64,000 bases of DNA from a phage. This document shows, piece after piece, positions 31,427 to 53,797 of the stretch (position 1 is the first letter of the stretch; every line of letters begins with the position of its first letter). Below the pieces are notes generated by a model, which did no database searches, had not been told where the DNA came from, and saw only the letters and a program-made list of their open reading frames with translations. The translations under genes were made by a program, and so were the position numbers. The stretch is from NCBI GenBank assembly GCA_025830695.1, contig GCA_025830695.1_4111.1. The stretch is one strand, 5' to 3'.

Positions 31427-31855
31427 ATGAATATCGAACAAACTATCCGTGAACATTCTTTCTTCGCTCCAGAAACTGGTCGTGTTATTGAGAGCGTCAA
31501 AATCGAAGAACTAATGGTCAATGTTAAATACAAAGAACCAAATGATGAGATTAGCAGTACTTTTTGTGCTCTACGTGCACCATTCCGTAATGAAAAAGCT
31601 AAGAAACCAGCATATGTTCTTGCCATTGCACTGGGTTGTGTTGTAAAACTTGCAGTTGATGAAAATCTTCTGAATATTAAAGTTGCACCAAGCAATGACG
31701 ATGAAAACATTGATTTGAACTTTGATGGTTCTCTTGATGAAGATGTATTTTTCCAACAGTCACTTGTTTACGACTTCCGTACAGTGACACATTCTCACAT
31801 CAAGTTCATTAATGAAATGGTTGAGATTGTTGCTGAATACGAAGAATCTCTCTAA
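31427..31855 (+). CDS. EE-FFQ-S family small protein (paralogue 1)
   Basis: C-terminal DEDVFFQQSLVYD motif. Confidence 0.55.
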   Translation: MNIEQTIREHSFFAPETGRVIESVKIEELMVNVKYKEPNDEISSTFCALRAPFRNEKAKKPAYVLAIALGCVVKLAVDENLLNIKVAPSNDDENIDLNFDGSLDEDVFFQQSLVYDFRTVTHSHIKFINEMVEIVAEYEESL

Positions 31856-31865
31856 GTAAATACAA

Positions 31866-31889
31866 AAGCCTCCATTATGGAGGCTTTTA
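31866..31889 (+). terminator. rho-independent terminator
   Basis: AAGCCTCCA-TTA-TGGAGGCTT + TT. Confidence 0.65.
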
Positions 31890-31908
31890 TCACATAAGGA
31901 AATGAAAT

Positions 31909-32460
31909 ATGATAGACCAAATTAAAATCCTTACAAAGCAAATCACTGATTTTCTTTCTGATAAAGATGGATTTAATACAGAAGTAAAAATGCACGGTGT
32001 TAGTGTTGATGTAATTGCACCAAATGGTAATGTAACAAGTTACGACATGTATGAATTACTTCTTTATACTCTAGCAGTACGTAAACTAGGTAGTGATATT
32101 GAACTCAATATCAATACTGATGAAAGTGGGAATAAAATTTTTGCAATCAACACCAGTGCTAAATTCGATATCAGTACTGAAATTAAAAAAATAAATGAAA
32201 GTTTTATTGGCTTTAAGCATGAATCAATTCAAAGTGTTTTTATTGGAAAGCAAACTTCTAATAGTGAATGCCCATATTGTGTAATGACTTTATATAAAGA
32301 TGGAAACTGGATGCGTCAAGATTTAGTATTTGCTGAACTTCTGTATGCATTTACACATGAACTTAAAATCGAATTGGACGATAGTGTTTATTGCTTTAAG
32401 AAAATTCGAAATATAACTAAAGATATACAAACCCAACTTAAAGAATTAAATGATAAATAA
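31909..32460 (+). CDS. hypothetical protein
   Basis: 183-aa ORF. Confidence 0.5.
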   Translation: MIDQIKILTKQITDFLSDKDGFNTEVKMHGVSVDVIAPNGNVTSYDMYELLLYTLAVRKLGSDIELNINTDESGNKIFAINTSAKFDISTEIKKINESFIGFKHESIQSVFIGKQTSNSECPYCVMTLYKDGNWMRQDLVFAELLYAFTHELKIELDDSVYCFKKIRNITKDIQTQLKELNDK

Positions 32461-32576
32461 ATATACCAGAAATGGTTAACATATCATGTTACTTTCCTCC
32501 CTTACATAATAATGATGCGTTATTATATTTTCATTTTGTTCTTATTCCCCTTTTGGTACAAAATCATTTTAGTACT

Positions 32577-32599
32577 GCCCCGATCTTCGGGGCATTTTT
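32577..32599 (+). terminator. rho-independent terminator
   Basis: GCCCCGA-TCTTC-GGGGC + ATTTTT. Confidence 0.6.
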
Positions 32600-32620
32600 C
32601 TTATCTAAAATTGAGGATAT

Positions 32621-33016
32621 ATGAAGAACAATATTGGAACTTCAATAATTAAACCACTTTCTTATTACCTTGAAAAATTTAGAAGCACAAATGGTAATAA
32701 ATTTAATAATATATTTCAGTTCTCTCATAAAGAATATATTACAATTGATCATTTTTCAAAGAAACTAATGTATGTAAATGATAATAGTCATATTATTAAA
32801 TTATCATTCGATATTGAGTTAGATAAATTAACATTTACGGAATACATTAATCAAAAAACTTCTTTTTTATGTCAATACAATAGGAAAGTATATAGTAATA
32901 TTTCTATGTATCTAAATGATGAATATCACTTTCAACAATCTACAATAGAAGAAGTATTGTTCAGTACTGAAGAATTAAAAGAACTATATTACTGGTATAA
33001 TTATTTCACATCTTGA
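32621..33016 (+). CDS. EE-FFQ-S family small protein (paralogue 2)
   Basis: DEYHFQQSTIEE. Confidence 0.55.
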   Translation: MKNNIGTSIIKPLSYYLEKFRSTNGNKFNNIFQFSHKEYITIDHFSKKLMYVNDNSHIIKLSFDIELDKLTFTEYINQKTSFLCQYNRKVYSNISMYLNDEYHFQQSTIEEVLFSTEELKELYYWYNYFTS

Positions 33017-33071
33017 CATTATTGTGGGTTTATCCTACAATACATGATGATGCTGCATTGAGGATAAATTT

Positions 33072-33482
33072 ATGAGTTTAGATTTACACAATGAACTAAA
33101 ATATTTTTTAGATTTGGACATATCAGAATTGAACCACCACGTCAATCATATGACTAGTACTGTATGGTGGTCTAATGATCAAGACGACCCAATTATCCAA
33201 CTAAGTGATGAATCGTCAATTATGCGATTTTATAAGATTAATTATAAAAAGAACATCAAGATCACATATGTACCATACAAAAACATACTACTAGTCGAAA
33301 CACTTAATCCAAGTTCTTTATTAAAAATCACAGATTTAGATACATTACAAACAAGTGAATCTTTATTCCAACGTTCATTAGTTGATGATCTTGGTGGTAT
33401 TACTTTTGAAGATATATTACAATTGAAGAATATGTATAGTGAATTGTTGGAGATTAAAAACACTTTAGTAATGGGGAATTGA
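33072..33482 (+). CDS. EE-FFQ-S family small protein (paralogue 3)
   Basis: SESLFQRSLVDDLGGITFED. Confidence 0.55.
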   Translation: MSLDLHNELKYFLDLDISELNHHVNHMTSTVWWSNDQDDPIIQLSDESSIMRFYKINYKKNIKITYVPYKNILLVETLNPSSLLKITDLDTLQTSESLFQRSLVDDLGGITFEDILQLKNMYSELLEIKNTLVMGN

Positions 33483-33483
33483 T

Positions 33484-33888
33484 ATGGTAAGTTTACTAGA
33501 TATTGATAATACCAGTTTAGTGCTGGTGAAAAAAGGTTTAATTCCCAATTCTACAAAAATTGATTATGCTGTTATTGAAACAAATATTGGAAATATCTGG
33601 TACGACTCTGAAAGGGATATTGTGTTTAGCTGTGTAGACAGTGATCGATCTGAATGTTGTAGAGTCGGTCATGACGGACAATTTGTTTTTGAATTTCGTT
33701 ATTGGAAGGACGCAAAATTTCACCAAGAACTGGTTGCTTTGTCAAATGAACTATATACAGAAGAATCGTTCTTCATGGCTAGTACTATTAATGATTTTGG
33801 TTCAGTTACATTTGAGTACTATAAAAAGATATACGCACTATCCAGAGAAGTTATGAAAATTATCAGAACTGCTGAAGGTAAAGAATAA
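33484..33888 (+). CDS. EE-FFQ-S family small protein (paralogue 4)
   Basis: EESFFMASTINDFGSVTFE. Confidence 0.55.
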   Translation: MVSLLDIDNTSLVLVKKGLIPNSTKIDYAVIETNIGNIWYDSERDIVFSCVDSDRSECCRVGHDGQFVFEFRYWKDAKFHQELVALSNELYTEESFFMASTINDFGSVTFEYYKKIYALSREVMKIIRTAEGKE

Positions 33889-33889
33889 C

Positions 33890-34267
33890 ATGACTACTAT
33901 ATATGATATTTTGGGTGTTCTGAGTAGAAATATAGATGATGATTTTGTTATTGTTCAAGATACTAGAAATACATTTCAACTACCAATAGGTTCACCAGAT
34001 AGGTTAATTTTTAATAGATACTCAAATGAACTAACTTACATCCATGATGGGATTGCAATTGTATCAGTTTCTATAAACGACTATACAATACGATATGTAT
34101 ATGACTTCAACGATTATTGTACAAGAATCCACAGTATTGATATTTCCGAAGAGGAACTATTCCAATTGTCATTGATTGAGAAAAATGTAATAGGAATTAC
34201 AGAAATTGGTATTATTAAAAAAGCATTAAACTATACAAATATAAGAATTAATGGTGGGTGCAGATGA
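33890..34267 (+). CDS. EE-FFQ-S family small protein (paralogue 5)
   Basis: EEELFQLSLIEKNVIGITE. Confidence 0.55.
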   Translation: MTTIYDILGVLSRNIDDDFVIVQDTRNTFQLPIGSPDRLIFNRYSNELTYIHDGIAIVSVSINDYTIRYVYDFNDYCTRIHSIDISEEELFQLSLIEKNVIGITEIGIIKKALNYTNIRINGGCR

Positions 34268-34719
34268 ATGTTGACGAAATAAAAAATCATTTTGAAATTG
34301 CAATGTCATGTGAATTTGACACACAACGTGTTCATGACCCGAAAGAACATATACGCATTTGTTGTGAATTGTCAGATGATTGTAATATTTTTATTGGAAA
34401 AACCTATGACATGATCGATCTTTCATGTATAGATCCATTGGAAAGAAAAACAAAATATTTATATCTGTACAACACAACATCAGATACGATTGCAATACAA
34501 CTAATATCAACCACAACATCCCAAAGTTATTATAACATAACTGAGGTTAGTAGTTTAACGTTAACCGAAGAAGGATTCTTTCAACAATCGCTTATTCGTG
34601 AAATTGGTGTTAGTTATGATGAGTTAAATGTATTAGTAGATTGTTTCGAAAAATTGAGTACTTTTGTATTATCCCTTTTTAATATACAGTCGCAAAATCC
34701 AATGGTGGTGAAATGCTAA
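34258..34719 (+). CDS. EE-FFQ-S family small protein (paralogue 6)
   Basis: EEGFFQQSLIREIGVSYDE. Confidence 0.55.
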   Translation: MQMNVDEIKNHFEIAMSCEFDTQRVHDPKEHIRICCELSDDCNIFIGKTYDMIDLSCIDPLERKTKYLYLYNTTSDTIAIQLISTTTSQSYYNITEVSSLTLTEEGFFQQSLIREIGVSYDELNVLVDCFEKLSTFVLSLFNIQSQNPMVVKC

Positions 34720-35153
34720 ATCCAAGTAAATTTCTCCACTTACTTTCGATAACATCAATACCGGATCTTACCAGTGAAACTAATGAATATCGTGAAGCTG
34801 GGGTGGTGTCTATGGAACTCGATACATTTGACCACAAATGCTATGTGACATATGACCCACCGCGTTATGGTAAAGAACATTCTTCTTTTATTTTTGTATT
34901 CGTATACACTGTATATGATAATACAACACTTGATGATGTTTGTATTGACACTTACGAAATTTGTGATAATATCATAACTGATGACAACAATAACTCATTT
35001 GATATGTCACTATATAACACAGAAGAATCGTTGTTTCAACTTAGTACTGTTATTGATGCACCATCATTAGAAGATATAAAACAATTTCAAGAACATCTTG
35101 ACGCAGTTCGTGAGATGTTCTATAATCATTATCCAGAAGTAGAGTTCAATTAA
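34713..35153 (+). CDS. EE-FFQ-S family small protein (paralogue 7)
   Basis: EESLFQLSTVIDAPSLED. Confidence 0.55.
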   Translation: MLNPSKFLHLLSITSIPDLTSETNEYREAGVVSMELDTFDHKCYVTYDPPRYGKEHSSFIFVFVYTVYDNTTLDDVCIDTYEICDNIITDDNNNSFDMSLYNTEESLFQLSTVIDAPSLEDIKQFQEHLDAVREMFYNHYPEVEFN

Positions 35154-35167
35154 CTAAAGGTAATAAG

Positions 35168-35428
35168 ATGACTAAAGTAGTTCGTAAACGCCACATGATG
35201 AACATGGATGAATTTCGCACATTTGACAAATATCGTACTATGTTTCGTATGCTTTCACAGGGCCGTCCAATCGTCATTGTAACAGAGAATTACATGTCAC
35301 CTGAGATTATGTTTGGTAATTATGAAAAGGTCTTCATGTTGTACGTGAAGCGTGGATTACTTACAATCAAGACATTAGCTGAAGCAACTGATGAAGATAT
35401 GGATGGTGATAATACCTTTACCATGTGA
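35168..35428 (+). CDS. hypothetical protein
   Basis: 86-aa ORF. Confidence 0.45.
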   Translation: MTKVVRKRHMMNMDEFRTFDKYRTMFRMLSQGRPIVIVTENYMSPEIMFGNYEKVFMLYVKRGLLTIKTLAEATDEDMDGDNTFTM

Positions 35429-35467
35429 GGAAATATATGTCTGAAAAGCCAAAAGAACCATTAGATC

Positions 35468-35758
35468 GTGATGATGATTTTTATGACGAACGATATGGAG
35501 ATGATGATGAGTGAACATAGTGCTGTGCTTAAAAAGATTTTAAAGGAACTTGATGGTGAGTTTAATGTCACAGAAGAAGACTATCAGCATTGGAAGAAAG
35601 GTTTTGAACAACTAACCGAGTATGATAAAGTGTTCAATATGATTGGCGTAATTAGCCAGTACTTACTCGGTGGAGGACGTGCAAGTGCTTCAATTCTGGC
35701 ATCTGCAATCATCTGTACATCACGATGGTGTGATGAAAAAAGTTTGGAAGATTTCTAA
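35468..35758 (+). CDS. hypothetical protein (start uncertain)
   Basis: 96-aa ORF with several in-frame Met. Confidence 0.4.
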   Translation: MMMIFMTNDMEMMMSEHSAVLKKILKELDGEFNVTEEDYQHWKKGFEQLTEYDKVFNMIGVISQYLLGGGRASASILASAIICTSRWCDEKSLEDF

Positions 35759-35810
35759 ATAAGATGCTATAATATATTATAGTACCTTAACAATATAAAA
35801 AGGATTTTAT

Positions 35811-36671
35811 ATGAAACCTATCCGAGTACTTTCTCTTTTTAATGGAATGAGTGTGGGATATATGGCATTGCAAGATGCTGGTATCCCAGTTGAAAAATAT
35901 TATTCATCCGAAATTGATAAGTACGCAATAGCTGAATCTCAATCTAACTTTCCTGATATTATCCAATTGGGTGATGTAACTAAGTGGAGAGAATGGGATA
36001 TTGAGTGGGACAAAATAGATTTATTAATGGGTGGTTTCCCATGCCAAGCCTGGTCAGTTGCAGGTAAACAGGGTGGTTTAAATGATATACGTGGGCAGTT
36101 ATTTTTAGTAATGGTTGAAATTTTTGATCATATCAAAAGTCTCAATCCTAACTTGAAATTTCTGTTTGAAAATGTTAAAATGAAGGAAGATTTCAAAGAA
36201 TACATTAATAGTATTTTAGGAATCACGCCAGTACTGATAAACTCCCAGCATTATACGCCTCACTTCAGGCAGAGATATTACTGGTACAGTACTGATAAGC
36301 TTTTTATACCACCTGCATTATCCAATGCACCTAAACTTCAAGATATTATTGAAGATGGTTGGTACACTGACAGAACCGCTTCGTACTGTATAGATGCTAA
36401 CTATTTTAAAGGTGGTGATTGTAACCAGTACTTTAATAAATCCAGACGACAATTGGTGTTTCGTGACCCAGTGATCAGTCGTCAATATCTATTAGAGAAT
36501 GGCAAAAGAAATATTGACTATAGACACTTAAGTGTAGTAGAATGTTGTAAATTACAGGGTGTTCCTGAAGATTTCTTTAAAGTGTCTAGTAAGACACAAG
36601 CATACAAAATGCTTGGGAATGGATGGACTATGCCAGTTATATCACATTTACTAAGAGAGATATTCTTTTGA
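35811..36671 (+). CDS. DNA (cytosine-5)-methyltransferase
   Basis: motif I LFNGMSVG, motif IV GGFPCQAWS (catalytic Cys), motif VI ENV; 286 aa. Confidence 0.8.
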   Translation: MKPIRVLSLFNGMSVGYMALQDAGIPVEKYYSSEIDKYAIAESQSNFPDIIQLGDVTKWREWDIEWDKIDLLMGGFPCQAWSVAGKQGGLNDIRGQLFLVMVEIFDHIKSLNPNLKFLFENVKMKEDFKEYINSILGITPVLINSQHYTPHFRQRYYWYSTDKLFIPPALSNAPKLQDIIEDGWYTDRTASYCIDANYFKGGDCNQYFNKSRRQLVFRDPVISRQYLLENGKRNIDYRHLSVVECCKLQGVPEDFFKVSSKTQAYKMLGNGWTMPVISHLLREIFF

Positions 36672-37153
36672 ACATAAACAAATACCAAACTTATATAAAA
36701 CGTACAGAAAGTTTCAAACGGCTGGCTGTAAAATCTGAATTAGAATTTAATTTGTATTATCCTAATATTGGTGATGAGGTATTTTATTGCTCTCATTCAA
36801 AGAATGGAACTTTACTTAAATCGGGTAAAGGAACTATTGTTGATATGACCGCAAATTTCAGAGGTAAACTTAATGTAATGTACAAAGTACAAGATTCAAG
36901 TACTGAGTGTATTCATGAAGTGATGCATAACATACCTGCATATCCAAAAGATTTTGTTCAGCTAATATCTCGAAGGGAGAAACCTATGTTTTATTGTGGT
37001 TACGATAAATTAACCAAACAAATTATTCCTAATACTATGGGAAAATTTAAAAGTGATGTGAAATCTGAACTTGAAAAGAAATTTGGCACGTCATGGGAAA
37101 CTGAAAACGAGTTTATCGAAATTCGTTTAATTGAAATTACTATACTTGAATAA
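36623..37153 (+). CDS. hypothetical protein (start uncertain, possibly TTG 36668)
   Basis: ORF overlaps the methyltransferase 3' end. Confidence 0.4.
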   Translation: MDYASYITFTKRDILLNINKYQTYIKRTESFKRLAVKSELEFNLYYPNIGDEVFYCSHSKNGTLLKSGKGTIVDMTANFRGKLNVMYKVQDSSTECIHEVMHNIPAYPKDFVQLISRREKPMFYCGYDKLTKQIIPNTMGKFKSDVKSELEKKFGTSWETENEFIEIRLIEITILE

Positions 37154-37157
37154 TTAC

Positions 37158-37182
37158 AAATCCACGCATTGCGTGGATTTTT
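37158..37182 (+). terminator. rho-independent terminator
   Basis: ATCCACGC-ATT-GCGTGGAT + TTTTC. Confidence 0.65.
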
Positions 37183-37195
37183 CATAGGTGCATAT

Positions 37196-37711
37196 ATGCC
37201 AATTCCTTATGTTAAAATTATTAATAATATTCTCGATTCATGGGAAGATGTTATTACTGGTAAAAAGAAACCATCACCAGTACATGCTTTATCTGGGAAA
37301 CTTCAATTCAGAATGTCAAACCAAACTGAAACATTTAATAATCATGATATTTGCATTACATTAAAAACACCTGTTAGTATTGTAATTAAAAAAAATAAAG
37401 ATGATGAATTGACATTATCTATTGGTCGTGATAAAATCATTTTAAGTAATTTGTCTGAAGAAGAATTCTTTCAAAGAAGTACTATTATCGATATGAAAGA
37501 TTTCACATATGAATCATTGGTTGAACTCAATACACGTTTTAACGATATTCAGGAACGATTGCGACCAATTCTTCGTATCGAAGAAGAAGCCTGGATTGAA
37601 AGTATTAGGAAGATGCAAGAAATGTTGAAAGAAAATATTAACAATCTGGGTAAAGCTACAATGGAATTTGGTAAAACTTTTAAACTGAACTTTTCAAAGG
37701 ATCGTAAATGA
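37196..37711 (+). CDS. EE-FFQ-S family small protein (paralogue 8)
   Basis: SEEEFFQRSTIIDMKDFTYE; ORF in track (37169..37711), start moved to ATG 37196 past the terminator. Confidence 0.55.
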   Translation: MPIPYVKIINNILDSWEDVITGKKKPSPVHALSGKLQFRMSNQTETFNNHDICITLKTPVSIVIKKNKDDELTLSIGRDKIILSNLSEEEFFQRSTIIDMKDFTYESLVELNTRFNDIQERLRPILRIEEEAWIESIRKMQEMLKENINNLGKATMEFGKTFKLNFSKDRK

Positions 37712-38163
37712 AAATTGATAATTTGATTCATGTTTTAGGATCTTTACATAAAATATTATCACATCTACATGAGATAAAGAAACTGGGATTTAACATCTCA
37801 AATTCAATTGAAACTACATTTAAATATCAATCAATTACTGGTGATGGTTATTACATAATCGAATATACTTATGAAACCGATCCAGACTTCTATCCTCTTA
37901 CGTTGAGAATTTATCCAACAAATCCGAGAGGAATTCACGACATATCATCAATTTCACTTGATCCAGATGGTGAAACGAGTATTGAATACAATAATGATTC
38001 AAAACCAGAATTTTACATTGATGATATTAAAATGATGTTCAACGATGAATATGTTTTCCAACAAAGTACTGTGCATGATGTTGGAAGTACTAATGGACAA
38101 TTTTGGAATACATGTTATTATCATATGATTGAAATTTGTAAATTACTAAAAGGTGATGAATAA
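37708..38163 (+). CDS. EE-FFQ-S family small protein (paralogue 9)
   Basis: NDEYVFQQSTVHDVGST. Confidence 0.55.
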   Translation: MKIDNLIHVLGSLHKILSHLHEIKKLGFNISNSIETTFKYQSITGDGYYIIEYTYETDPDFYPLTLRIYPTNPRGIHDISSISLDPDGETSIEYNNDSKPEFYIDDIKMMFNDEYVFQQSTVHDVGSTNGQFWNTCYYHMIEICKLLKGDE

Positions 38164-38546
38164 TGAAATACTGCATTGAAGTACATTACACTACAGGGGA
38201 CACTGAAACTGAAGATTCAGTTACCAATACATTGGATGTTCAATGGGAATCAAAGGATGAGGCAGTTGTAGCATTACAGTCTTTGAAAGAGCATTGGGTA
38301 TTCTTTAAGAAACTCGATGATGCATATAGTAACGAACGTGCTACAATAATCGATGAAGCCAAACATAAAGAATGGTTTGATCCAATGTCATGTGAATTCT
38401 CTTTCTTTGTAAAAATTGGAGATGAAAAAATCCCAGTACGTACACCGTGGAACGGCTACTTTGAAACTCTTCATAATGCACGAGTTGTCGCTGTTGATAA
38501 TCCTGAACAAATCGATTTCGATTCATTGGACTGGAAAAAACTATGA
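38163..38546 (+). CDS. hypothetical protein
   Basis: 127-aa ORF. Confidence 0.5.
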   Translation: MKYCIEVHYTTGDTETEDSVTNTLDVQWESKDEAVVALQSLKEHWVFFKKLDDAYSNERATIIDEAKHKEWFDPMSCEFSFFVKIGDEKIPVRTPWNGYFETLHNARVVAVDNPEQIDFDSLDWKKL

Positions 38547-38986
38547 CAGTACTGCACCAATTGAAGAAGGTTAAGCATCCAGTTGTATATGAGGACTGGA
38601 AACGTCAGAAGCTGATGGGTGATTTTTATTTCCCAAAATCTAAAGTACTAGCAACGTCAAAAGCTATATACTTGAAATATAAGGATGAAGATTGTTTGTG
38701 TATTCAAATGGGATTCCATCCTAAAGTTGGTTTGTTTACAACAAATCAAACATTTTATAAATTTAGAATTCAAAAAGATACATTTAGTATTCATATCGAA
38801 AAACATGATGTACAAGATACAATTTATCGTGTGGAAAGTGAGCCTTTGAATCTTGTTGAGATCCCGTACAATAATTTAGAAGAAATGTACTTTCAGCAGT
38901 TGACAATACAAGAAGACTTTGGTATGATAGGACTTCAAGAGTTAGAGATGATTAAACAAATTCGTGATATCTACTTTAAGGAGTAA
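38543..38986 (+). CDS. EE-FFQ-S family small protein (paralogue 10, divergent)
   Basis: LEEMYFQQLTIQEDFGMIGLQE. Confidence 0.5.
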   Translation: MTVLHQLKKVKHPVVYEDWKRQKLMGDFYFPKSKVLATSKAIYLKYKDEDCLCIQMGFHPKVGLFTTNQTFYKFRIQKDTFSIHIEKHDVQDTIYRVESEPLNLVEIPYNNLEEMYFQQLTIQEDFGMIGLQELEMIKQIRDIYFKE

Positions 38987-39146
38987 CTATGCCAGTACGT
39001 AACAGTACTTCACGCTTTACGCTTCAACAGAAAGCAGATCTTTTGAATATGGCAAACAAAGATTCTAATTTTCACTATCTAGTGCTCGGTGGGTCAGTAG
39101 AAAAGATTGACCTACGTGAGTGTATGAAATAACAAAAGGGGCTAAA

Positions 39147-39485: not shown

Positions 39486-39517
39486 ACTCCTATATTAATT
39501 AAACGAGGATATACGAA

Positions 39518-43365: not shown

Positions 43366-43758
43366 ATGACTGAATCAGAACTACACGAAATGATAGATTT
43401 CATTTATGAAATGGTACAAGATAAAAATAACATCAATACAATTGCATCAGGCCCAAGACAAATTGGTAACCAAATAACATATTCTTTGTCCTTATGGTTA
43501 CACCCGTGCATTAAGGTTGATTGTTTGTATTTCCGTCCTGATATTGATGCTTATTATTTTGTCAATCATGATGCATTAATGAAACCACATAATCGTCCAG
43601 TTGATGATACCTTTGTGACACACCCATTTTACCTGGCTGATTCCGAAGAAGATGAGTTTCAAAAGAACACAACGTTAAGCCCAGGTGAAATTTGCATCCC
43701 TTACGTACTTAAAGATAAAATGAATCACATCACAGAAGTTATGAAAACATGCTGGTAG
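43366..43758 (+). CDS. EE-FFQ-S family small protein (paralogue 11, divergent)
   Basis: SEEDEFQKNTTL. Confidence 0.45.
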   Translation: MTESELHEMIDFIYEMVQDKNNINTIASGPRQIGNQITYSLSLWLHPCIKVDCLYFRPDIDAYYFVNHDALMKPHNRPVDDTFVTHPFYLADSEEDEFQKNTTLSPGEICIPYVLKDKMNHITEVMKTCW

Positions 43759-43806
43759 ATGCAATGAAACTCTGATATAATACAAATAATGATAATAGGA
43801 GGATAT

Positions 43807-44025
43807 ATGAAATTTATTGATTTTGATATTTCTAAGGCCAAAGAATTATTTGTAAGAAATGAAGTTTATGATATCATGTTACATAACGGCACTGTACAAG
43901 AAGATGTTGTGTTGTTTTCGTTTGATGGTGAAAATCTCGAAACTATATATAAATTCAGCAACTTAGATGGTGACTTTTGGGAAACCAGTGCTGTTAAAAT
44001 GTATAGAATTAAAAAGGAGCATTAA
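43807..44025 (+). CDS. hypothetical protein
   Basis: internal ATG of track ORF 43789..44025 with AGGAGG RBS. Confidence 0.45.
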   Translation: MKFIDFDISKAKELFVRNEVYDIMLHNGTVQEDVVLFSFDGENLETIYKFSNLDGDFWETSAVKMYRIKKEH

Positions 44026-44026
44026 C

Positions 44027-44515
44027 ATGCCAATTCGTGGTGTACCAGAACCATTAATGGAAGTTATTAAGCATGTTCGCATTGGAGATCGAGAAGTTAA
44101 TCTTCGCCGTAATAACATTTATTACTTTAAAACTTCAGAAATGAGTTCTGTACAGATTGTCATTGGTACATCTATTAAGATTACTCGTGTACTTGATGGT
44201 AGTACTGACTTCGTTGAATATAATGTACTTACTAATAAAGTAACGCATATATATAAATGGAGTGGGTATAAAACTATTAAGTATGAATTTGACTTAGCTA
44301 GAACTGAAGAAGAACGATTTATGCTGAGTACTATCAATCCAGCAAACTATCCCGATCTTGATGCATTTTTGCTAATTTTAAAATTGTATAATGAAGCAAA
44401 TCAGAAAGCTAAAGAGTATGATAGAATCATGTATGAACGCCGAAAAGAACGTGCACAAAAAAGTTATGATCTGTATGATAGCCCATACGTGAAATATAGT
44501 AAGGGGTCGAAATGA
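44027..44515 (+). CDS. EE-FFQ-S family small protein (paralogue 12, divergent)
   Basis: TEEERFMLSTINP; internal ATG of track ORF 43967..44515 with AGGAG RBS. Confidence 0.45.
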   Translation: MPIRGVPEPLMEVIKHVRIGDREVNLRRNNIYYFKTSEMSSVQIVIGTSIKITRVLDGSTDFVEYNVLTNKVTHIYKWSGYKTIKYEFDLARTEEERFMLSTINPANYPDLDAFLLILKLYNEANQKAKEYDRIMYERRKERAQKSYDLYDSPYVKYSKGSK

Positions 44516-44916
44516 ATAAAGAAGTTCAAATTATCATAACTCCACCTATACAAAGTCTGGATGTATCCATTAGTGATTTTTTGGAAAAATACTATGAATG
44601 GTTTAATGAAGATTCAGTAATTTATAACCATTCATTACCAGATGGTTTCGTGGAGCTTATCGAATTAAATTCAAAATCACTATACTTCTGTGTTGAATAC
44701 AATGATTATATGACAGATGAAGCTTATCGCTTTCGTTGTACATTGTATCCGAATTATTTTTCAATAGGTTATAAAGATTACCAGTACTGTACCACTAACT
44801 ATAGTGTTGAGGAAGAATTTCAGTACAATTTACTTTATCCTGATTTAGATTATACGATTGCAGTACTGTTGACTAAAATCATGGATTTTTATAAAGATAA
44901 ATATAATGCAGCCTAA
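44512..44916 (+). CDS. EE-FFQ-S family small protein (paralogue 13, divergent)
   Basis: VEEEFQYNLLYPDLD. Confidence 0.4.
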   Translation: MNKEVQIIITPPIQSLDVSISDFLEKYYEWFNEDSVIYNHSLPDGFVELIELNSKSLYFCVEYNDYMTDEAYRFRCTLYPNYFSIGYKDYQYCTTNYSVEEEFQYNLLYPDLDYTIAVLLTKIMDFYKDKYNAA

Positions 44917-45091
44917 GACATTTGATGAGTGGTTTAATCTACACTATAATATAAATGCAGCAGATATATACTATTTTAAGCTTGAATTGTATATATCATT
45001 GCGTAACCCAATTGAGTACTATAACAACATTATCAATTGTGATGATTTTGGTACATATTTTAGTATAGCCGTTATGGATATTAAGAGATGA
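44906..45091 (+). CDS. hypothetical protein Confidence 0.4.
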   Translation: MQPKTFDEWFNLHYNINAADIYYFKLELYISLRNPIEYYNNIINCDDFGTYFSIAVMDIKR

Positions 45092-45267
45092 CACATGAAG
45101 AATGGATGGCAATGATGAAAAAACGTTATGACCAGTTTGGAAATGGATTTATTGATGGTCATTTCGATATTTTACGAGACAAATATAAGTTCGAATCATA
45201 TGTACTAGATGAGAATGGAAATCGTTGGTTCATCTATGAGCTTGCGGTTAGAGACAAAAAAATATAA
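45088..45267 (+). CDS. MTHEEW-family small protein (copy A)
   Basis: not in track; MTHEEWMAMMKKRYDQFGNG...; ATGA overlap with upstream stop. Confidence 0.45.
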   Translation: MTHEEWMAMMKKRYDQFGNGFIDGHFDILRDKYKFESYVLDENGNRWFIYELAVRDKKI

Positions 45268-45279: not shown

Positions 45280-45345
45280 TTGTCCATTGCAATGCTTTCT
45301 TTACAGAAGAATAAATGAAACACTTAATTGAACTGGATACATAAA
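45280..45345 (+). pseudogene. decayed 3' remnant of a 45648..45863-like gene
   Basis: about 60 nt closely similar to the 3' end of ORF 45648..45863, with an in-frame stop. Confidence 0.45.
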
Positions 45346-45522
45346 ATGACACATGAAGAATGGATAGAGTCACTAAAATATAAACATGATCATTTTGGAT
45401 TTGGTATACGCCAAGGCCATTATGATGTTTTGAACGATAAAAAAACGTTCGAATCATTGGTTTTGGACGAAGATTCCAACCACTGGTTCATCTACGAGCT
45501 TGCTATTAGAGATAAAAAATAG
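45346..45522 (+). CDS. MTHEEW-family small protein (copy B)
   Basis: internal ATG of track ORF 45328..45522. Confidence 0.5.
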   Translation: MTHEEWIESLKYKHDHFGFGIRQGHYDVLNDKKTFESLVLDEDSNHWFIYELAIRDKK

Positions 45523-45527
45523 TAAGA

Positions 45528-45863
<336 letters not shown>

Positions 45864-45864
45864 A

Positions 45865-46047
45865 ATGACACACGAAGAATGGATGTCCAAACAGCATAAA
45901 GAACATGACTGCTTTGGGAATGGCATTCGTCAGGTACATTATGATATATTAAGAGATGAAAATCTTTTCAGGTCATATGTTTTGGATACCAGAAAACCCT
46001 GGTTTATATGCGAACTGGCATTTAGAAAGTCAAATAATCAAAACTAA
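45865..46047 (+). CDS. MTHEEW-family small protein (copy C)
   Basis: internal ATG of track ORF 45847..46047. Confidence 0.5.
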   Translation: MTHEEWMSKQHKEHDCFGNGIRQVHYDILRDENLFRSYVLDTRKPWFICELAFRKSNNQN

Positions 46048-46063
46048 ACAAGGAATACAAAAA

Positions 46064-46282: not shown

Positions 46283-46335
46283 ATCATTAATTCATTATAT
46301 AATGATTATCACTGGTTCTAGATGAGGATAATATT

Positions 46336-46608: not shown

Positions 46609-46612
46609 ATAA

Positions 46613-46742
<130 letters not shown>

Positions 46743-46745
46743 AAT

Positions 46746-46846
<101 letters not shown>

Positions 46847-46848
46847 CA

Positions 46849-47009
<161 letters not shown>

Positions 47010-47013
<4 letters not shown>

Positions 47014-47170
47014 CACATGAAGAATGGATGAATGACATTAATTTTAGATATTCGGGTATCGGTAAATGGCTAAAGTATCATTGGGAATTCATTTCAGAGC
47101 CACATCTGTATGATAAACTTATCAACGATCCAGCATATGAAATGTACTTAATTGAACTACTGGTACGATT

Positions 47171-47174
<4 letters not shown>
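47010..47174 (+). CDS. MTHEEW-family small protein (copy E)
   Basis: near-identical to copy D over the first third; ATGA-coupled. Confidence 0.45.
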
Positions 47175-47336
<162 letters not shown>

Positions 47337-47344
47337 AAAAAAAG

Positions 47345-47758
<414 letters not shown>

Positions 47759-47815
47759 CTAAATAATTCAGTACTGAGGATATTAATATGTTTAAAGATG
47801 AACGTCCAGATTTGT

Positions 47816-47853
<38 letters not shown>

Positions 47854-47857
47854 GAAT

Positions 47858-48201
47858 TCCACAATCAGACGTATATGGTGTAAGTTACGTCGATGCAATC
47901 CAGAACAAGATCTCTGGTACTCTAGGAAGTGGTGAATGTTAACCTAGACGGGTTTGATAATTGGACGATAGGCAATTATTACTTGACTAGCAGGTTTAAA
48001 CTAGAGGTGACTATCCTTCACCAAACTGGAAAACCGGATGGACTTTTATTTAAAAGGGTAAGGCGTGGAAATATGTTTACAGAAGTTGCTTTTAGTAGCC
48101 TGTACGCCCCACGTCAAGGTAGCCGAAAGGCAAGTTAAGACGGGTGGTTATAAAGCTGAATTAACAGCGGCGTTTAAAAGCGTCACCATCCATTTTTTTT
48201 T
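47858..48201 (+). ncRNA. candidate structured non-coding RNA
   Basis: ORF-poor, GC-richer stretch between a promoter and a hairpin + T-run; long-range complementarity (GGTGAA...TTCACC), GAAA tetraloop CCGAAAGG. Confidence 0.35.
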
Positions 48202-48217
48202 AATTAAAGTTGGTGAT

Positions 48218-49027
<810 letters not shown>

Positions 49028-49051
49028 ACGAAATTACAATAGGAAATTAAA

Positions 49052-49237
49052 ATGCAACTTTTAATTCTTTCAATATTGTATATTATTATAATGGTTCCGA
49101 TATCAATACGTTTAATTACACTTGAACGATTTTTATCGAAACATGGAAATAGATCTATGATCTTAGTACCAATCGGGCTTATATTGTTTGGTATTTTTGC
49201 ATTTATAATGGGAATTAACGCTACATTCATTTCATAG
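49052..49237 (+). CDS. small membrane protein
   Basis: 61-aa two-helix hydrophobic ORF. Confidence 0.45.
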   Translation: MQLLILSILYIIIMVPISIRLITLERFLSKHGNRSMILVPIGLILFGIFAFIMGINATFIS

Positions 49238-49246
49238 GAAACAAAT

Positions 49247-49504
<258 letters not shown>

Positions 49505-49512
49505 GAATTTAA

Positions 49513-49914
49513 ATGAAAAAGAATGACTTGATCAAAATGCTTCAAGAAATTGACGGCAATCCAGAGATTGTTATTTGGAATGGATACGTCGATGATTATA
49601 TGAACATCGAAAAAGGCTTGACTAAAATCACTCTAGTCAAAGAAACCGAACAGTTTCTTCAGGGTGCATTAGAGCACGAATGGTGTGAACGTAACAATAC
49701 ATTCGACATTCCAGAAGACCAACGAACCAAGATTGCAGAACGTGCTAAAGAACTGCATAAGAAACGTGAATACGATTTCCAGAACCCATATGTCACTGAA
49801 GACGAATTCAATCGCTGGTACGGTAAAAAGAAATTGATAAAGTATGTCCTTTCACCTAAACTACGTGGTAAGACTTCACTTGGTGTATTCAACGCCGCAG
49901 ACTTAAACTACTAA
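49513..49914 (+). CDS. hypothetical protein Confidence 0.5.
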   Translation: MKKNDLIKMLQEIDGNPEIVIWNGYVDDYMNIEKGLTKITLVKETEQFLQGALEHEWCERNNTFDIPEDQRTKIAERAKELHKKREYDFQNPYVTEDEFNRWYGKKKLIKYVLSPKLRGKTSLGVFNAADLNY

Positions 49915-49926
49915 GAGAGTATTTAA

Positions 49927-50694
<768 letters not shown>

Positions 50695-50696
50695 TA

Positions 50697-50753
<57 letters not shown>

Positions 50754-50838
50754 AGTAAGAGTAAAAATGAAAGTAAGTAAAAAAACTACCAAGCAGCTTG
50801 AAGAACTTTGTAGTGCTGCACCTATGCCGACTCTTGGC

Positions 50839-50939
<101 letters not shown>

Positions 50940-50951
50940 TATCTTACTTCT

Positions 50952-51041
<90 letters not shown>

Positions 51042-51047
51042 TACACT

Positions 51048-51473
51048 ATGAAATACAACATTGTTAAAATGGTGAACTATATATTAAAAAACAACGCATG
51101 GTCACTGCATGATGTACAATTAGAAGATATTGGTGAAGTTAGAGTATTTTGCTATGATCCAGATTTGAATCAAACCACAGATTTGAGTAAATGTTTTAAT
51201 ATTTTTCTTGGTTATGAATTCAATAATCATTTTTATTCATTTGATGTGTATTTTGAAAAAGTTATATTCAGAAGTTATGAATGTGATAATGAAGATTATG
51301 ATTATGATGATGAATCAATTGAATTGAATGTTAACGATATTGATACTGAAGAAAAATTCTTCCAGTACTGCCTCCTTAACGACACATTAGGATTAACATT
51401 TGAGGACATTAAAGCTATACTTAAAGTTCAAAAGTTGATTCCAGAAGAGGTTCTAAATCCATTAAATGACTAG
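51048..51473 (+). CDS. EE-FFQ-S family small protein (paralogue 16)
   Basis: TEEKFFQYCLLNDTLGLTFED. Confidence 0.55.
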   Translation: MKYNIVKMVNYILKNNAWSLHDVQLEDIGEVRVFCYDPDLNQTTDLSKCFNIFLGYEFNNHFYSFDVYFEKVIFRSYECDNEDYDYDDESIELNVNDIDTEEKFFQYCLLNDTLGLTFEDIKAILKVQKLIPEEVLNPLND

Positions 51474-51831
51474 TCTAATAGTACGTATAATGCAAGATGT
51501 TTGTAATAACCTTTATACAGGCAATTTTGACGATCCGAACATAAAAATATTATGTTATGATGGTTTTACAATGGTACATCCATCCTATTCAAATAATATC
51601 TACGTAGCATATACAGGTGAAAATCTATTATATCAATTTGATATATATAGTACAATGACAAAGATAATTTTGGATGCCTCTAAACCAGCAATCTTTATTG
51701 CTTCTCATGATTACCATTACACTGAAGAATCACTATTTCAGTACTCAATGATTAATGACATTGGTGGGTTGACATTGGATGAGGTTAATGCTATACTAGC
51801 TGTCTCACGTTTGGTTAAAACCCACAATTAG
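51466..51831 (+). CDS. EE-FFQ-S family small protein (paralogue 17)
   Basis: TEESLFQYSMINDIGGLTLDE. Confidence 0.55.
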   Translation: MTSLIVRIMQDVCNNLYTGNFDDPNIKILCYDGFTMVHPSYSNNIYVAYTGENLLYQFDIYSTMTKIILDASKPAIFIASHDYHYTEESLFQYSMINDIGGLTLDEVNAILAVSRLVKTHN

Positions 51832-51840
51832 GAGATTCAT

Positions 51841-52032
51841 ATGTTCTGGAATTTATTATGCTTGTTTGGTCGTACATTGGTTCTTGCTATTATTCATACA
51901 CCTGGTATTCGTAATTATGTTTCTTATGAATTTAAGAAAAATTATCACAACAATACTGAAGTTCGTACAACTAAGATGTGCAAAGACTTCAAGGTAGATG
52001 TTCCACCATTCAAGAAGTACGAGGATGAATAA
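51841..52032 (+). CDS. small hypothetical protein with hydrophobic N-terminus Confidence 0.45.
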   Translation: MFWNLLCLFGRTLVLAIIHTPGIRNYVSYEFKKNYHNNTEVRTTKMCKDFKVDVPPFKKYEDE

Positions 52033-52316
52033 TGGAATTCATTGTTGCACCTGATGAACTTAAAACATTCACGTTCAGAGATAATAACAATTATCCTTAT
52101 ACAAATCATTCATTGAATTCATTACATGTTATTGCAATCATTGCATCTGAATACAGGGATAATCCATGTATTGATTTTAAAACCACTGATGGCGAATATA
52201 CATGGGTGATCCCAAAAGATAAATATAGTTATCAAGGGGCAGTAGAAATTCGTGACTCGATTCTAAAACAAATCGAAGATGGAAATACTCATCCTAAACT
52301 AAACACTCAGTACTGA
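52032..52316 (+). CDS. hypothetical protein Confidence 0.5.
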   Translation: MEFIVAPDELKTFTFRDNNNYPYTNHSLNSLHVIAIIASEYRDNPCIDFKTTDGEYTWVIPKDKYSYQGAVEIRDSILKQIEDGNTHPKLNTQY

Positions 52317-52329
52317 AATCGTTTAACCC

Positions 52330-52385
52330 GATAGCTTCTAGTCAGTACTGATTCCTCCTTATGTATAGAAGCTATCACTTTTTTA
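52330..52385 (+). terminator. rho-independent terminator (long-loop hairpin)
   Basis: GATAGCTTCTA ... TAGAAGCTATC 11-bp stem + T-run. Confidence 0.45.
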
Positions 52386-52504
52386 CGTATAATGATATTA
52401 CCCTCAAATTCATTATATTCGTTACCCTCTAACAGTATCTTTTTATTCCTCTTGGATGCTGTAATTTAGAAGTTGACTTTTTAACTTCTACTGTGTTATA
52501 CTTA

Positions 52505-52533
52505 AGGCTGATTCGATGAATCGGCCTTTTTTC
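52505..52533 (+). terminator. rho-independent terminator
   Basis: GGCTGATTC-GAT-GAATCGGCC + T6. Confidence 0.6.
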
Positions 52534-52541
52534 TTATATAG

Positions 52542-52970
52542 GTGAATGCAATGAGTTATTTGTTTACTTTAATTGATAAGTATGTTGACATTGTATACCG
52601 TCAAGTTTGTAGTGATACGTTTGAAACAAAAAACCCAATTAGAGATGGCATTTTTGATGTTGTCGTTGGATCATTTTTGAATGGATACACCGAGACATTA
52701 TACAACAGTAATAATATTTTTATTTCAGTTCAATCCAGACATACATCAGACTATGCTGTTAGCATTGATATTTGGGAAAATAATATAGAAATAGATATAA
52801 CGGAACATACTAACATTCATGTTGATGATACATTTAATCAATTAACTGAAGAAATGTACTTGCAGTTGAATTTTGTACATGATCTTACAAATATCAGTTA
52901 TGATACATTAAGGAAAATATGTTTTCTTAGTGGGGCGATCCGTAGTAATATGAGTAAGGATGGGAAGTGA
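52542..52970 (+). CDS. EE-FFQ-S family small protein (paralogue 18, divergent)
   Basis: TEEMYLQLNFVHDLTNISYD. Confidence 0.45.
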   Translation: MNAMSYLFTLIDKYVDIVYRQVCSDTFETKNPIRDGIFDVVVGSFLNGYTETLYNSNNIFISVQSRHTSDYAVSIDIWENNIEIDITEHTNIHVDDTFNQLTEEMYLQLNFVHDLTNISYDTLRKICFLSGAIRSNMSKDGK

Positions 52971-52971
52971 A

Positions 52972-53388
52972 ATGTTAAAAATTCCACCTAAGTCGTTAAC
53001 ACATCTTATTGAATGTGGTGTAATATTTTCCGAAGGTGATACCTCATCATACACATTGGTCGATGAACCTTATAATTTTTCATACCAATCTTATAAAAAT
53101 AATTCTAAAATTTCTTGTAGAGATGCTGAAAACATATTAATAGATGTTTCGTTACATAATGTTCCGAAATTTTACATTGATATCTTTGGTGATTCTTTGA
53201 CAATTCGAACATATGATTATTTTATTAATAACGACCTCTTGAGTCTTCCAATTGAACATGATACTATAGATTCAGAGATGTTCTTTCAACTATCAACAGT
53301 TTACGATTTACAGGGTTTAACTGTTGAGCAGTTGAATGGAATATTTGAGATTTCACGAAACATACGAAGCAGGAATAAAAATGTCTAA
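52972..53388 (+). CDS. EE-FFQ-S family small protein (paralogue 19)
   Basis: DSEMFFQLSTVYDLQGLTVE; internal ATG of track ORF 52960..53388. Confidence 0.55.
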   Translation: MLKIPPKSLTHLIECGVIFSEGDTSSYTLVDEPYNFSYQSYKNNSKISCRDAENILIDVSLHNVPKFYIDIFGDSLTIRTYDYFINNDLLSLPIEHDTIDSEMFFQLSTVYDLQGLTVEQLNGIFEISRNIRSRNKNV

Positions 53389-53797
53389 TATTTTAAATGA
53401 AAAAACAGTTGATGTTGTTATTGGTGTTCTTAACACCGCAACTTCATTTCAGAAGAAACACAGTACTGTATACTTCGGTGACGATTGTTGGCTGAACTAT
53501 ACATCTGATAATTCGTTTATAATTCGTGTTGAGAAGGGTGATATTGGATTAACGATACATGCTTCCCACACTAAAACTGATAAGAAAATCACTGTTATTG
53601 CAAACAAGCCAAGTGTCTCAGATTTCTGGGATAGAATTGATGATTGCGACCATTTCATGTCAACATTCTATAAAACAGAAGAAGAACATTTCATGGATAG
53701 TACGGTCAAAGAATTAGCTATTCCATTTAAACTTATGAAAGCAGTAAGAGATTTTATTTTAAAATACAAAAAAATAGGAGTTACTAATGCAATTTAA
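53381..53797 (+). CDS. EE-FFQ-S family small protein (paralogue 20, divergent)
   Basis: TEEEHFMDSTVKE; internal ATG of track ORF 53336..53797 with AGGAAT RBS. Confidence 0.45.
   Translation: MSNILNEKTVDVVIGVLNTATSFQKKHSTVYFGDDCWLNYTSDNSFIIRVEKGDIGLTIHASHTKTDKKITVIANKPSVSDFWDRIDDCDHFMSTFYKTEEEHFMDSTVKELAIPFKLMKAVRDFILKYKKIGVTNAI

Follow-up and report, generated by a model that had tools for sequence, protein, structure and literature searches.

A lineage-specific family of about sixty small proteins sharing a predicted C-terminal helical hairpin in RaK2-like jumbo phages

Large eukaryotic DNA viruses carry multigene families, among them MGF360/505 of African swine fever virus and the "accordion" families of poxviruses. 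For large DNA viruses, gene-family expansion as counter-defence is an accepted reading (PMC13359090). A phage example of lineage-specific expansion is the zinc ribbon of Bacillus phage G, present in about 35 copies (Iyer et al. 2021, PMC7824862), in a study that does not cover the family described here. That family is represented by 20 genes in a 64,000-nucleotide stretch of phage DNA (contig GCA_025830695.1_4111.1, hereafter the window), and its members are recognized by a conserved block near the C-terminus of otherwise highly divergent small proteins.

The window derives from a jumbo myovirus, an Asteriusvirus coliphage of the 121Q/PBECO4 type, a genus with genomes of 348-373 kb. It is 99.9% identical to Escherichia phage SHEFM2K across 7.6 kb, and 97-99.7% identical to phAPEC6, SP27, PBECO4 and 121Q. 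Its G+C content is about 33%, and the plus strand bears nearly all genes. Public records label every gene considered here a hypothetical protein. The RaK2 paper reports that about 10% of gene products are paralogues, with the family neither named nor delineated, and the CBB paper lists 22 paralogous open reading frames (ORFs). Neither a description of the family nor a transcriptome for this phage group was found in the literature on 121Q/PBECO4, phAPEC6, Sharanji, fEgEco12, RaK2 and CBB, in jumbo-phage reviews, or in a transposon-sequencing preprint. The family is undescribed in the available literature.

Like the phage G zinc ribbon, the family consists of a small domain of uncharacterised function in dozens of copies, mostly in tandem; it differs in being another domain, one without a recognised fold, and in its higher copy number of about 60. 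The analogy with the multigene families of eukaryotic viruses takes in the tandem arrays, a birth-and-death evolution that leaves old orthologs beside recent duplicates, evolution faster than that of neighbouring genes, loss of some copies in one lineage, and a presumed part in host interaction. Unlike those families, this one belongs to a bacterial virus, its proteins are unrelated to theirs, and its role toward the host is presumed. What is new is the family itself and its predicted fold, viral multigene families being already known as a kind.

A family signature in twenty tandem genes

The 20 ORFs picked out in the sequence-only reading were all found on the plus strand at the positions it gave, in the five clusters it described (31.4-35.2, 37.2-39.0, 43.4-44.9, 47.4-48.6 and 51.0-53.8 kb). 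All 20 carry the motif [ST]-E-E-x-x-F-Q-x-S-[TL]-[IV] about 40 residues before the C-terminus. A strict form, [ED][ED]..F[QM].[SN][TLM][IVL], was matched 12 times across the 344 window ORFs, against 0.004 matches expected from 1000 shuffles. Iterative profile searches begun from four single-member seeds converge on 17-19 of the ORFs, with no false matches on either strand. A hidden Markov model (HMM) built solely from Klebsiella-phage homologues (25-59% identical at best), here called the Klebsiella-only HMM, finds 17 window members at E<1e-3, ORF 32621-33016 at 6e-3 and ORF 43366-43758 at 0.04; unrelated ORFs score from 0.11 up, and 44512-44916 (0.26) falls among them. By these scores, membership is solid for 18 ORFs and weak for one, and for one more it depends mainly on the motif. 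Profile searches and shuffle test together establish the block as a genuine family signature, as had been proposed from the sequence.

Codon usage at the invariant residues shows at what level this conservation operates. Phe is encoded 28 times by TTT and 21 times by TTC, Gln 26 times by CAG and 21 times by CAA, and Ser by both AGY and TCN codons. Because synonymous codons vary freely at these residues, conservation must be viewed as acting on the protein rather than reflecting a DNA repeat, and a DNA repeat or gene conversion as the source of the motif is ruled out. Some codon preference is visible all the same: in 51 members from the complete genome OR844650.1, introduced below, CAG encodes the invariant Gln in 55% (23% genome-wide) and AGT the invariant Ser in 62% (33% genome-wide), a bias that may come from codon context or common ancestry.

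The view that the motif belongs to no named family also held. Searches against Pfam-A, run at E<=1 with ten members and at E<=0.01 with 88, found no family matched by more than one member, all matches lying below the cut-off, and NCBIfam and PADLOC gave no match. A profile search of all PDB sequences found nothing below E = 0.37, and Foldseek found no PDB match below E = 0.13. In PHROGs the 20 window members are spread over 19 families, all of unknown function, with only weak cross-matches among them. A search of 5.8 billion proteins with a profile of the hairpin region alone, for which only six candidates passed the word filter, added nothing further. One member in phAPEC6, gp447c (25809-26294 in the compared stretch), is annotated "amidohydrolase 3", which is probably a mis-annotation.

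The family has about 60 copies, of which the 20 genes in the window make up roughly a third. In OR844650.1, a near-identical complete genome without annotation, assembled here, an iteration seeded by 51466-51831 alone recovered 60 members at E<1e-3; every one lies on the coding strand and shows the signature when aligned, and their combined length of 27.9 kb is 7.9% of the genome. Of these, the 19 at 28.3-49.0 kb match the window, two (9.0 and 14.6 kb) lie just past what corresponds to its right edge, about 38 form a nearly unbroken array at 265.6-294.9 kb, and the others are at 198.8-200.2, 212.7, 252.5 and 324.7 kb. With an HMM trained on coliphage sequences only, the RaK2-like Klebsiella phage OU509535.1 was found to have about 40 members, in the two large arrays that the coliphage also has. 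Within 20 kb of a metagenomic relative there are 14-15 members, in synteny with genes for a C5-methyltransferase and a PTH2 hydrolase, and another distant member lies in a similar tandem array. By comparison, tblastn with the HMM consensus recovered just one paralogue per genome.

HMMER, run exhaustively over 1.84 billion representative proteins, found 140 clusters (50% identity) at E<=1e-3. All are unnamed proteins of 62-249 amino acids (aa), nearly all carry TEE[EY]FQxST, and all four contigs examined are phage-like. A fold search in BFVD returned uncharacterised proteins only; the top matches include proteins of phages UB, PBECO4, CBB and fHe-Yen9-04, and RaK2 appears only as a weak match (E 0.11) amid unrelated phages. 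The family is present in the scanned phages of E. coli and Klebsiella; for Pectobacterium phage CBB and a Yersinia phage the evidence is weaker and consists of structural matches. No fusion to a known domain was found, the longer members (to 249 aa) having unannotated extensions only; a 297-aa Klebsiella-phage match that might have been a domain fusion is the C5-methyltransferase, a false positive at E = 1.2e-3. The sources found are RaK2-like phages and phage-like metagenomic contigs only. With many paralogues per genome, mostly in tandem (60 copies in OR844650.1), restriction to one virus lineage, and birth-and-death dynamics, the family qualifies as a lineage-specific multigene family, one that belongs to RaK2-like jumbo phages and reaches about 60 copies per genome.

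Predicted architecture and evolution of the domain

The family profile is almost flat outside one block. The block runs [ST] (frequency 0.73), E (0.85), E (0.82), x, [YLF], F (0.98), Q (0.91, with M at 0.09), x, S (0.80), [TL] (0.92), [VIL] (0.95), x, D (0.58), and is followed five positions downstream by [LI]-[TS]-x-E-[ED]-[LI]-x-x-[IL]. The whole signature can be written h-[ST]-E-E-x-[YFL]-F-Q-x-S-[TL]-[VIL]-x-D ... [LI]-[TS]-x-E-[ED]-[LI]. In the AlphaFold2 model of the 51466-51831 product, a helix at residues 4-15 is followed by five β-strands within residues 26-79, the motif helix at 87-96 and a last helix at 104-114, and the motif block has a predicted local distance difference test (pLDDT) score of 90-91. 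The AlphaFold model of 37196-37711, a member of another subfamily, shows these elements in the same order, with a long C-terminal helix added, and has pLDDT 75.8 overall. Structure prediction for these two members therefore gives one layout of helix, β-meander, helix, helix. The predicted fold is an N-terminal helix, an antiparallel β-meander of four to five strands, the motif helix and a C-terminal helix; in these models the almost invariant two-helix hairpin closes off a body of about 100 residues that evolves fast.

Extreme N-terminal divergence, claimed from the sequence, was confirmed, with profile-profile comparison of N-terminal regions detecting homology in one of 45 pairs. Searches by jackhmmer with proteins stripped of the hairpin likewise retrieved only the query's own subfamily (2-17 matches, no decoys). 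Nevertheless, several observations favour one fold shared by the divergent regions. The two models agree; independently predicted BFVD models with 16-30% identity superpose over their full length with template modelling (TM) scores of 0.60-0.76; the length preceding the motif has a median of 98 and an interquartile range of 87-105 among 253 members; and net β-propensity is found in the 60 residues before the motif in 90% of members, compared with 58% of controls. On these grounds we consider it probable that the members are each one fast-evolving compact domain. The sequence-only reading, a conserved module attached to variable N-terminal domains, thus stands as to the shared block and the divergent N-termini; a portable module on unrelated domains is the less likely part of it.

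Two known folds invite comparison. Helices I-II of the colicin DNase immunity protein Im9 (YTEAEFLQLVTTI...SEEELVKLV) have a similar-looking helix start and hairpin spacing, but Im9 is all-helical, with no sheet, whereas the models here contain a β-meander. An Im9-like immunity protein was rejected, since Im9 was the fifth of six weak matches among PDB sequences, at E = 1.2, and none of 88 members matches its Pfam family. The MAM33/p32/gC1qBP fold is named for comparison only: the doughnut-shaped homotrimer is a feature of that fold, and the models here are of monomers.

Members are small (about 115-180 aa) and mostly acidic, with a median isoelectric point (pI) of 4.8 and a net charge of -9, compared with -3.5 for other small ORFs. 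Transmembrane segments are absent from 58 of the 60, and the proteins are, as judged from this, mostly soluble. Two basic members in the window, 37196-37711 and 44027-44515, have pI values of 8.6 and 9.4, computed for the ORFs as first called (37169-37711 and 43967-44515), and both have C-terminal extensions of 40-60 residues. For 37196-37711 the prediction makes the extension a single long helix, possibly a coiled coil, at residues 105-168.

The genes are under purifying selection. In phage TH47, all 19 orthologs tested are kept in synteny, the twentieth (52960-53388) being unscored. Median amino-acid identity to TH47 is 80% for the family, with a ratio of nonsynonymous to synonymous change (ω) of 0.23; the corresponding values for 50 neighbouring genes are 86% and 0.12. 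Across phage genera, 24 of the 60 pair with a Klebsiella-phage protein as reciprocal best hits, while members of a sub-array with the motif EEYYFQ[NQ]S are recent tandem duplicates with 35-58% identity. The family evolves by birth and death. Short deletions are numerous in a 319-kb relative, Salmonella phage SD-6_S16. Four family genes have such deletions within them, from which some members would seem to be dispensable. Relative to the window, deletions in SD-6_S16 fall at 33417-33518, 33965-34002, 37462-37770, 38639-38869, 43784-44022 and 49462-50361, several of them within family genes or spanning them; some are in frame and would fuse adjacent paralogues, and they could be real gene decay or assembly artefacts.

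Comparison with phAPEC6 bears on whether these are virion proteins. Window positions 31.4-38.2 kb are equivalent to gp120c-134c and the large array to gp407c-466c, and the other window members have lower gp numbers on the same strand, by position gp079 to gp119. The phAPEC6 virion proteome, 62 proteins identified by electrospray ionisation tandem mass spectrometry (PMC7247149), includes nothing in gp079-gp148 or gp348-gp548. This comparison spans, by position, 54 of the approximately 60 members, about six scattered members being unmapped. The mapped members are not virion components, and virion, inner-body or ejected proteins are ruled out for these 54.

Gene organisation and transcription signals

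Features of the arrays are collected in Table 1. Several starts were refined by PHROG alignments together with the G17 annotation (34264, 37196, 44027, 48218, 52551, 52972 and 53381), and a plausible, purine-rich Shine-Dalgarno-like stretch lies upstream of most of the 20 ATG starts. The translational coupling described in the sequence-only reading is seen in gene ends that overlap or abut at 33482/33484, 33888/33890, 34264-34267, 34713-34719, 37708-37711, 44512-44515, 51466-51473 and 53381-53388.

The strong promoters it described are likewise real as sequence matches. TTGAC[AT]-N16-18-TAnnnT, a near-consensus σ70 pattern, occurs at 24 sites on the plus strand of the whole window and at none on the other strand, with 0.85 expected from shuffling. 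The promoters at 33013, 47346, 50638 and 52473 are given as 30-80 nt upstream of family clusters. A T4-late-like TATAAATA occurs once in the 64 kb, at 14864, 19 nt before the 2.4-kb gene 14883-17303. Since near-consensus σ70 promoters and intrinsic terminators bound the coupled arrays, early transcription by host RNA polymerase is most likely; the signals suggest early or middle expression. In G17, a terminator is annotated just 3' of its copy of 31427-31855, a syntenic position to the hairpin found here.

Table 1. Family members and transcription signals in the window. E-values without further label are from the Klebsiella-only HMM.
Feature	Position	Strand	Motif or sequence	Remarks
Member, 142 aa	31427..31855	+	LDEDVFFQQSLVYD	1.6e-10; phrog_23322, unknown function; clear ortholog in Klebsiella phage, 47.6% identity
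Hairpin, 13-bp palindromic, terminator-like	31862..31890	.		directly 3' of gene 31427-31855
Hairpin and T-run, intrinsic-terminator-like	32576..32594	+		before gene 32621; same feature annotated in G17
Member, 131 aa	32621..33016	+	LNDEYHFQQSTIEE	6e-3; phrog_33313, unknown function; found in 4 of 4 local jackhmmer runs, 5.4e-10 to 8.4e-20
Promoter, σ70-like	33013..33041	+	TTGACA-17-TACAAT	31 nt before gene 33072
Member, 136 aa	33072..33482	+	QTSESLFQRSLVDD	5.6e-10; near-consensus promoter directly upstream
Member, 134 aa	33484..33888	+	YTEESFFMASTIND	8.4e-10; tblastn RaK2/K64-1 homologue, 30% identity
Member, 125 aa	33890..34267	+	ISEEELFQLSLIEK	1.5e-7
Member, 151 aa	34264..34719	+	LTEEGFFQQSLIRE	6.4e-11; start moved from 34258; PHROG alignment from residue 3
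Member, 146 aa	34713..35153	+	NTEESLFQLSTVID	9e-9; most acidic, net charge -21
Member, 171 aa	37196..37711	+	LSEEEFFQRSTIID	6.7e-11; start moved from 37169; long extra C-terminal helix
Member, 151 aa	37708..38163	+	FNDEYVFQQSTVHD	7.1e-8
Member, 147 aa	38543..38986	+	NNLEEMYFQQLTIQED	1.2e-5
Doubtful member, 130 aa	43366..43758	+	DSEEDEFQKNTT	0.04; mainly motif; jackhmmer finds own ortholog only
Basic member, 162 aa	44027..44515	+	RTEEERFMLSTINP	7.9e-14; start moved from 43967; C-terminal extension; reciprocal best hit in Klebsiella phage
Weak member, 134 aa	44512..44916	+	YSVEEEFQYNLLYPD	0.26, within noise; 1e-3 with E. coli-phage HMM built without its ortholog
Promoter, σ70-like	47346..47373	+	TTGACT-16-TATAAT	before gene 47405; first of three cassette copies
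Member, 117 aa	47405..47758	+	KTEEEYFQMSTVQE	4e-7; promoter 47346-47373
Promoter, σ70-like, with TG	47825..47853	+	TTGACT-17-TATAAT	upstream of gene 48218; repeated-cassette copy
Probable member, 125 aa	48218..48595	+	ADEEDEFQKRTVYE	8.7e-4; start moved from 48065; P0109, a relative with canonical motif, gives a 128-aa alignment to its ortholog
Promoter, perfect σ70 consensus	50638..50665	+	TTGACA-16-TATAAT	upstream of tRNA-Thr and the 51048-53797 cluster
Member, 141 aa	51048..51473	+	DTEEKFFQYCLLND	2.4e-9; full-length BLAST match to 51466-51831, 5e-11
Member, 121 aa, modelled reference protein	51466..51831	+	YTEESLFQYSMIND	AlphaFold pLDDT 89.4, predicted TM score (pTM) 0.82
Promoter, σ70-like	52473..52502	+	TTGACT-18-TATACT	before gene 52551
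Hairpin and T-run, terminator-like	52504..52528	+		between the 52473 promoter and gene 52551
Member, 139 aa	52551..52970	+	LTEEMYLQLNFVHD	5.3e-4; jackhmmer 2.5e-36
Member, 138 aa	52972..53388	+	IDSEMFFQLSTVYD	8.2e-8
Member, 138 aa	53381..53797	+	KTEEEHFMDSTVKE	7.6e-4; PHROG alignment from residue 16 of the long ORF

Two stretches have unusual arrangements of signals. At 52473-52528 a good promoter is followed at once by a strong hairpin of the terminator type, and gene 52551 begins 23 nt further on; the arrangement may be a leader attenuator, or a terminator and a promoter that overlap. A cassette, CTTGACTAAATA[GA]TTCAGTACTG, occurs in three copies within 500 bp (47346-47373, 47755-47784 and 47825-47853). 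The copies flank a 460-nt stretch (the gap 47759-48217) that has no convincing gene and no Rfam or tRNA match; the gap in G17 is only 77 nt. The 47.3-47.9 kb cassette was considered as a genome-wide promoter class, which was rejected because its occurrence is local only.

Six tRNA genes are interleaved with the arrays, as the sequence-only reading had it. Five were found by both ARAGORN and Rfam; the sixth, tRNA-Gly(tcc) at 45550-45622, is an ARAGORN prediction absent from Rfam gathering-score matches. The G17 record has an extra tRNA-Arg(tct) adjoining tRNA-Ser(tga), which no tool detects in the window. A C5 DNA-cytosine methyltransferase gene (35811-36671, plus strand) sits between family clusters, and its position is kept in Klebsiella phage OU509535.1 (322953-323846) and in the metagenomic relative (11500-12324), where the PTH2 peptidyl-tRNA hydrolase gene also lies within the array. 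Among the tRNA genes is a second, unrelated set of small paralogues (54-66 aa), all on the plus strand, at 45088-45267, 45328-45522, 45847-46047, 46849-47013, 47010-47174 and 47171-47335. Pairwise BLAST E-values in this set are 1e-5 to 3e-26, and two of the proteins start M[NY]WIHKMTHEEW; 45847-46047 was included by eye from the ORF list.

Candidate functions of the family

We propose, with about even odds of being right, that the members are binding proteins, diversified into a repertoire that serves host takeover or counter-defence. The proposal draws on the predicted anatomy of the proteins, the selection acting on them, their genomic context, and analogy. Host RNA polymerase would transcribe the coupled arrays early in infection, and the proteins would act inside the infected cell as diversified binders, that is, as host-takeover or counter-defence effectors. 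The variable body would give each paralogue its own target. The invariant hairpin would serve as a common scaffold and would probably also provide one interaction that all members share, whether self-association or docking to a single partner from host or phage. Such a shared interaction is also suggested by five polar residues that are nearly invariant in proteins whose similarity is otherwise lost.

A number of observations weigh against this proposal. No sequence or structural similarity to a characterised effector, anti-defence protein or adaptor was found in the databases searched, and the timing of expression is read from promoter consensus alone. About 15% of members are basic. The sheet in the 37196-37711 model is only moderately confident (pLDDT 61-67), and homology of the N-terminal bodies was detected by hhalign at more than 50% probability in only one of 45 pairs from ten subfamilies, about as in reversed controls. 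On a helical wheel the three variable positions of the motif line up in one stripe, with the conserved positions around the remainder, so the motif could be largely buried and purely structural. Replacement of Gln by Met in 9% of members fits packing better than specific recognition.

These last points are the case for a motif that is structural core only: a folding nucleus consisting of a helix N-cap, a hydrophobic staple and a buried helix, with no common interaction, in members that have drifted to unrelated or redundant roles such as acidic decoys or DNA mimics. The start of the hairpin fits h-[ST]-E-E-x-[aromatic]-F, which we take to be the classical pattern of N-cap plus hydrophobic staple. 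Since the only variable positions (x3, x7 and x11) share one helix face, much of the conservation may indeed be structural; the tolerated Gln-to-Met change and the acidity of the family agree with it also. Conservation of five near-invariant polar residues where the remaining similarity is lost, however, exceeds what is usual for a structural motif, and the basic 15% of members argue against a general role in DNA mimicry. We regard the purely structural explanation as unlikely, though worth keeping in view. We hold about the same modest expectation for a portable C-terminal module of about 35 residues, carried by unrelated N-terminal domains and having the sole job of docking to one partner or targeting machinery. 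In its favour, the N-terminal parts are unalignable between subfamilies, and conservation is confined to a hairpin that includes the polar residues E, E, Q, S and D. But models from two different subfamilies show one compact domain of the same topology, the narrow range of pre-motif lengths and the β-propensity before the motif both point to a single domain, and none of the 140 exhaustive matches places the hairpin on a protein that is larger or built differently. A common partner, as suggested in the sequence-only reading, keeps this modest expectation as a rival to the main proposal or a part of it, and its diversified effector set is still plausible. F-box and SOCS/BC-box proteins are box-type adaptor families, and they resemble this one by functional analogy only, in setting a short invariant helical element beside a hypervariable target-binding part within a very large paralogous family. 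They differ in having no sequence or structural relation to it, and the box here is apparently integral to one small domain. A specific, and no more probable, elaboration is an "FQ-hairpin" combinatorial adaptor system, in which the hairpin would dock some 60 paralogues on a single hub, for instance a phage factor or a host protein such as a protease, chaperone or polymerase, and each β-body would recruit or neutralise a different host protein or defence system. By analogy, such a system would be a bacterial-virus counterpart, with a new fold, of the F-box/SOCS-box and giant-virus immune-evasion families.

The remaining explanations are considerably weaker. Conserved acidic and polar residues packed into a 12-residue stretch could form an E-E...Q...S...D pocket for a metal, a substrate, or a nucleotide signal held as by a sponge, and some known phage counter-defence proteins are small oligomeric sponges. 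Yet no fold or sequence similarity to an enzyme or sponge was found, 60 divergent copies of one activity in a genome are hard to explain, and Gln-to-Met and Glu-to-Asp changes are tolerated, making a ligand-binding or catalytic family a poor prospect. The TEV (tobacco etch virus) protease consensus has E at P6, Y, F or L at P3 and Q at P1. The motif, as E-x-x-[YF]-x-Q, matches all three, and might mark the proteins for TEV/3C-type cleavage or, in the manner of inner-body proteins, for incorporation into the capsid; phAPEC6 has an inner body (PMC7247149). Against such a signal, the motif lies inside a confidently predicted helix (block pLDDT 90-91), conservation runs four to six residues beyond the Gln, P1' is variable with Ser at P2', unlike a TEV/3C substrate with its E-x-x-Y-x-Q followed by G or S in an accessible, flexible segment, and no mapped member is in the virion proteome. 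The sole head protease in the phAPEC6 proteome table is the prohead core scaffold and protease, and the annotations examined, which are a part of the whole phage proteome, list as proteases only this and a metallopeptidase. T4-type prohead proteases cleave after Glu. A processing or packaging signal is accordingly very improbable, and a TEV-like cleavage site is rejected on account of the helical motif, the conservation past the Gln and the absence from virions. It is scarcely credible that the ORFs are not genes at all but chance reading frames over a dispersed DNA repeat: repetitiveness itself speaks for this and nothing else does, while synonymous variation at invariant residues, an ω of 0.23, orthologs across phage genera, and the plausible Shine-Dalgarno-like stretches before most starts all speak against it.

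Whatever the function, a single uncharacterised domain takes up about 8% of the DNA of a 350-kb phage and about 11% of its genes. The domain is conserved in RaK2-like jumbo phages that infect several enterobacterial hosts, and its predicted fold has no detectable structural neighbour. The invariant hairpin, used as an HMM or as a motif, is a simple handle by which to annotate hundreds of hypothetical proteins. The family also offers a concrete, testable case of gene-family expansion contributing to phage genome gigantism. If its members are counter-defence or host-takeover effectors, few known phage repertoires of this kind would match the family in size, and it would be a rich source of new inhibitors of bacterial proteins.

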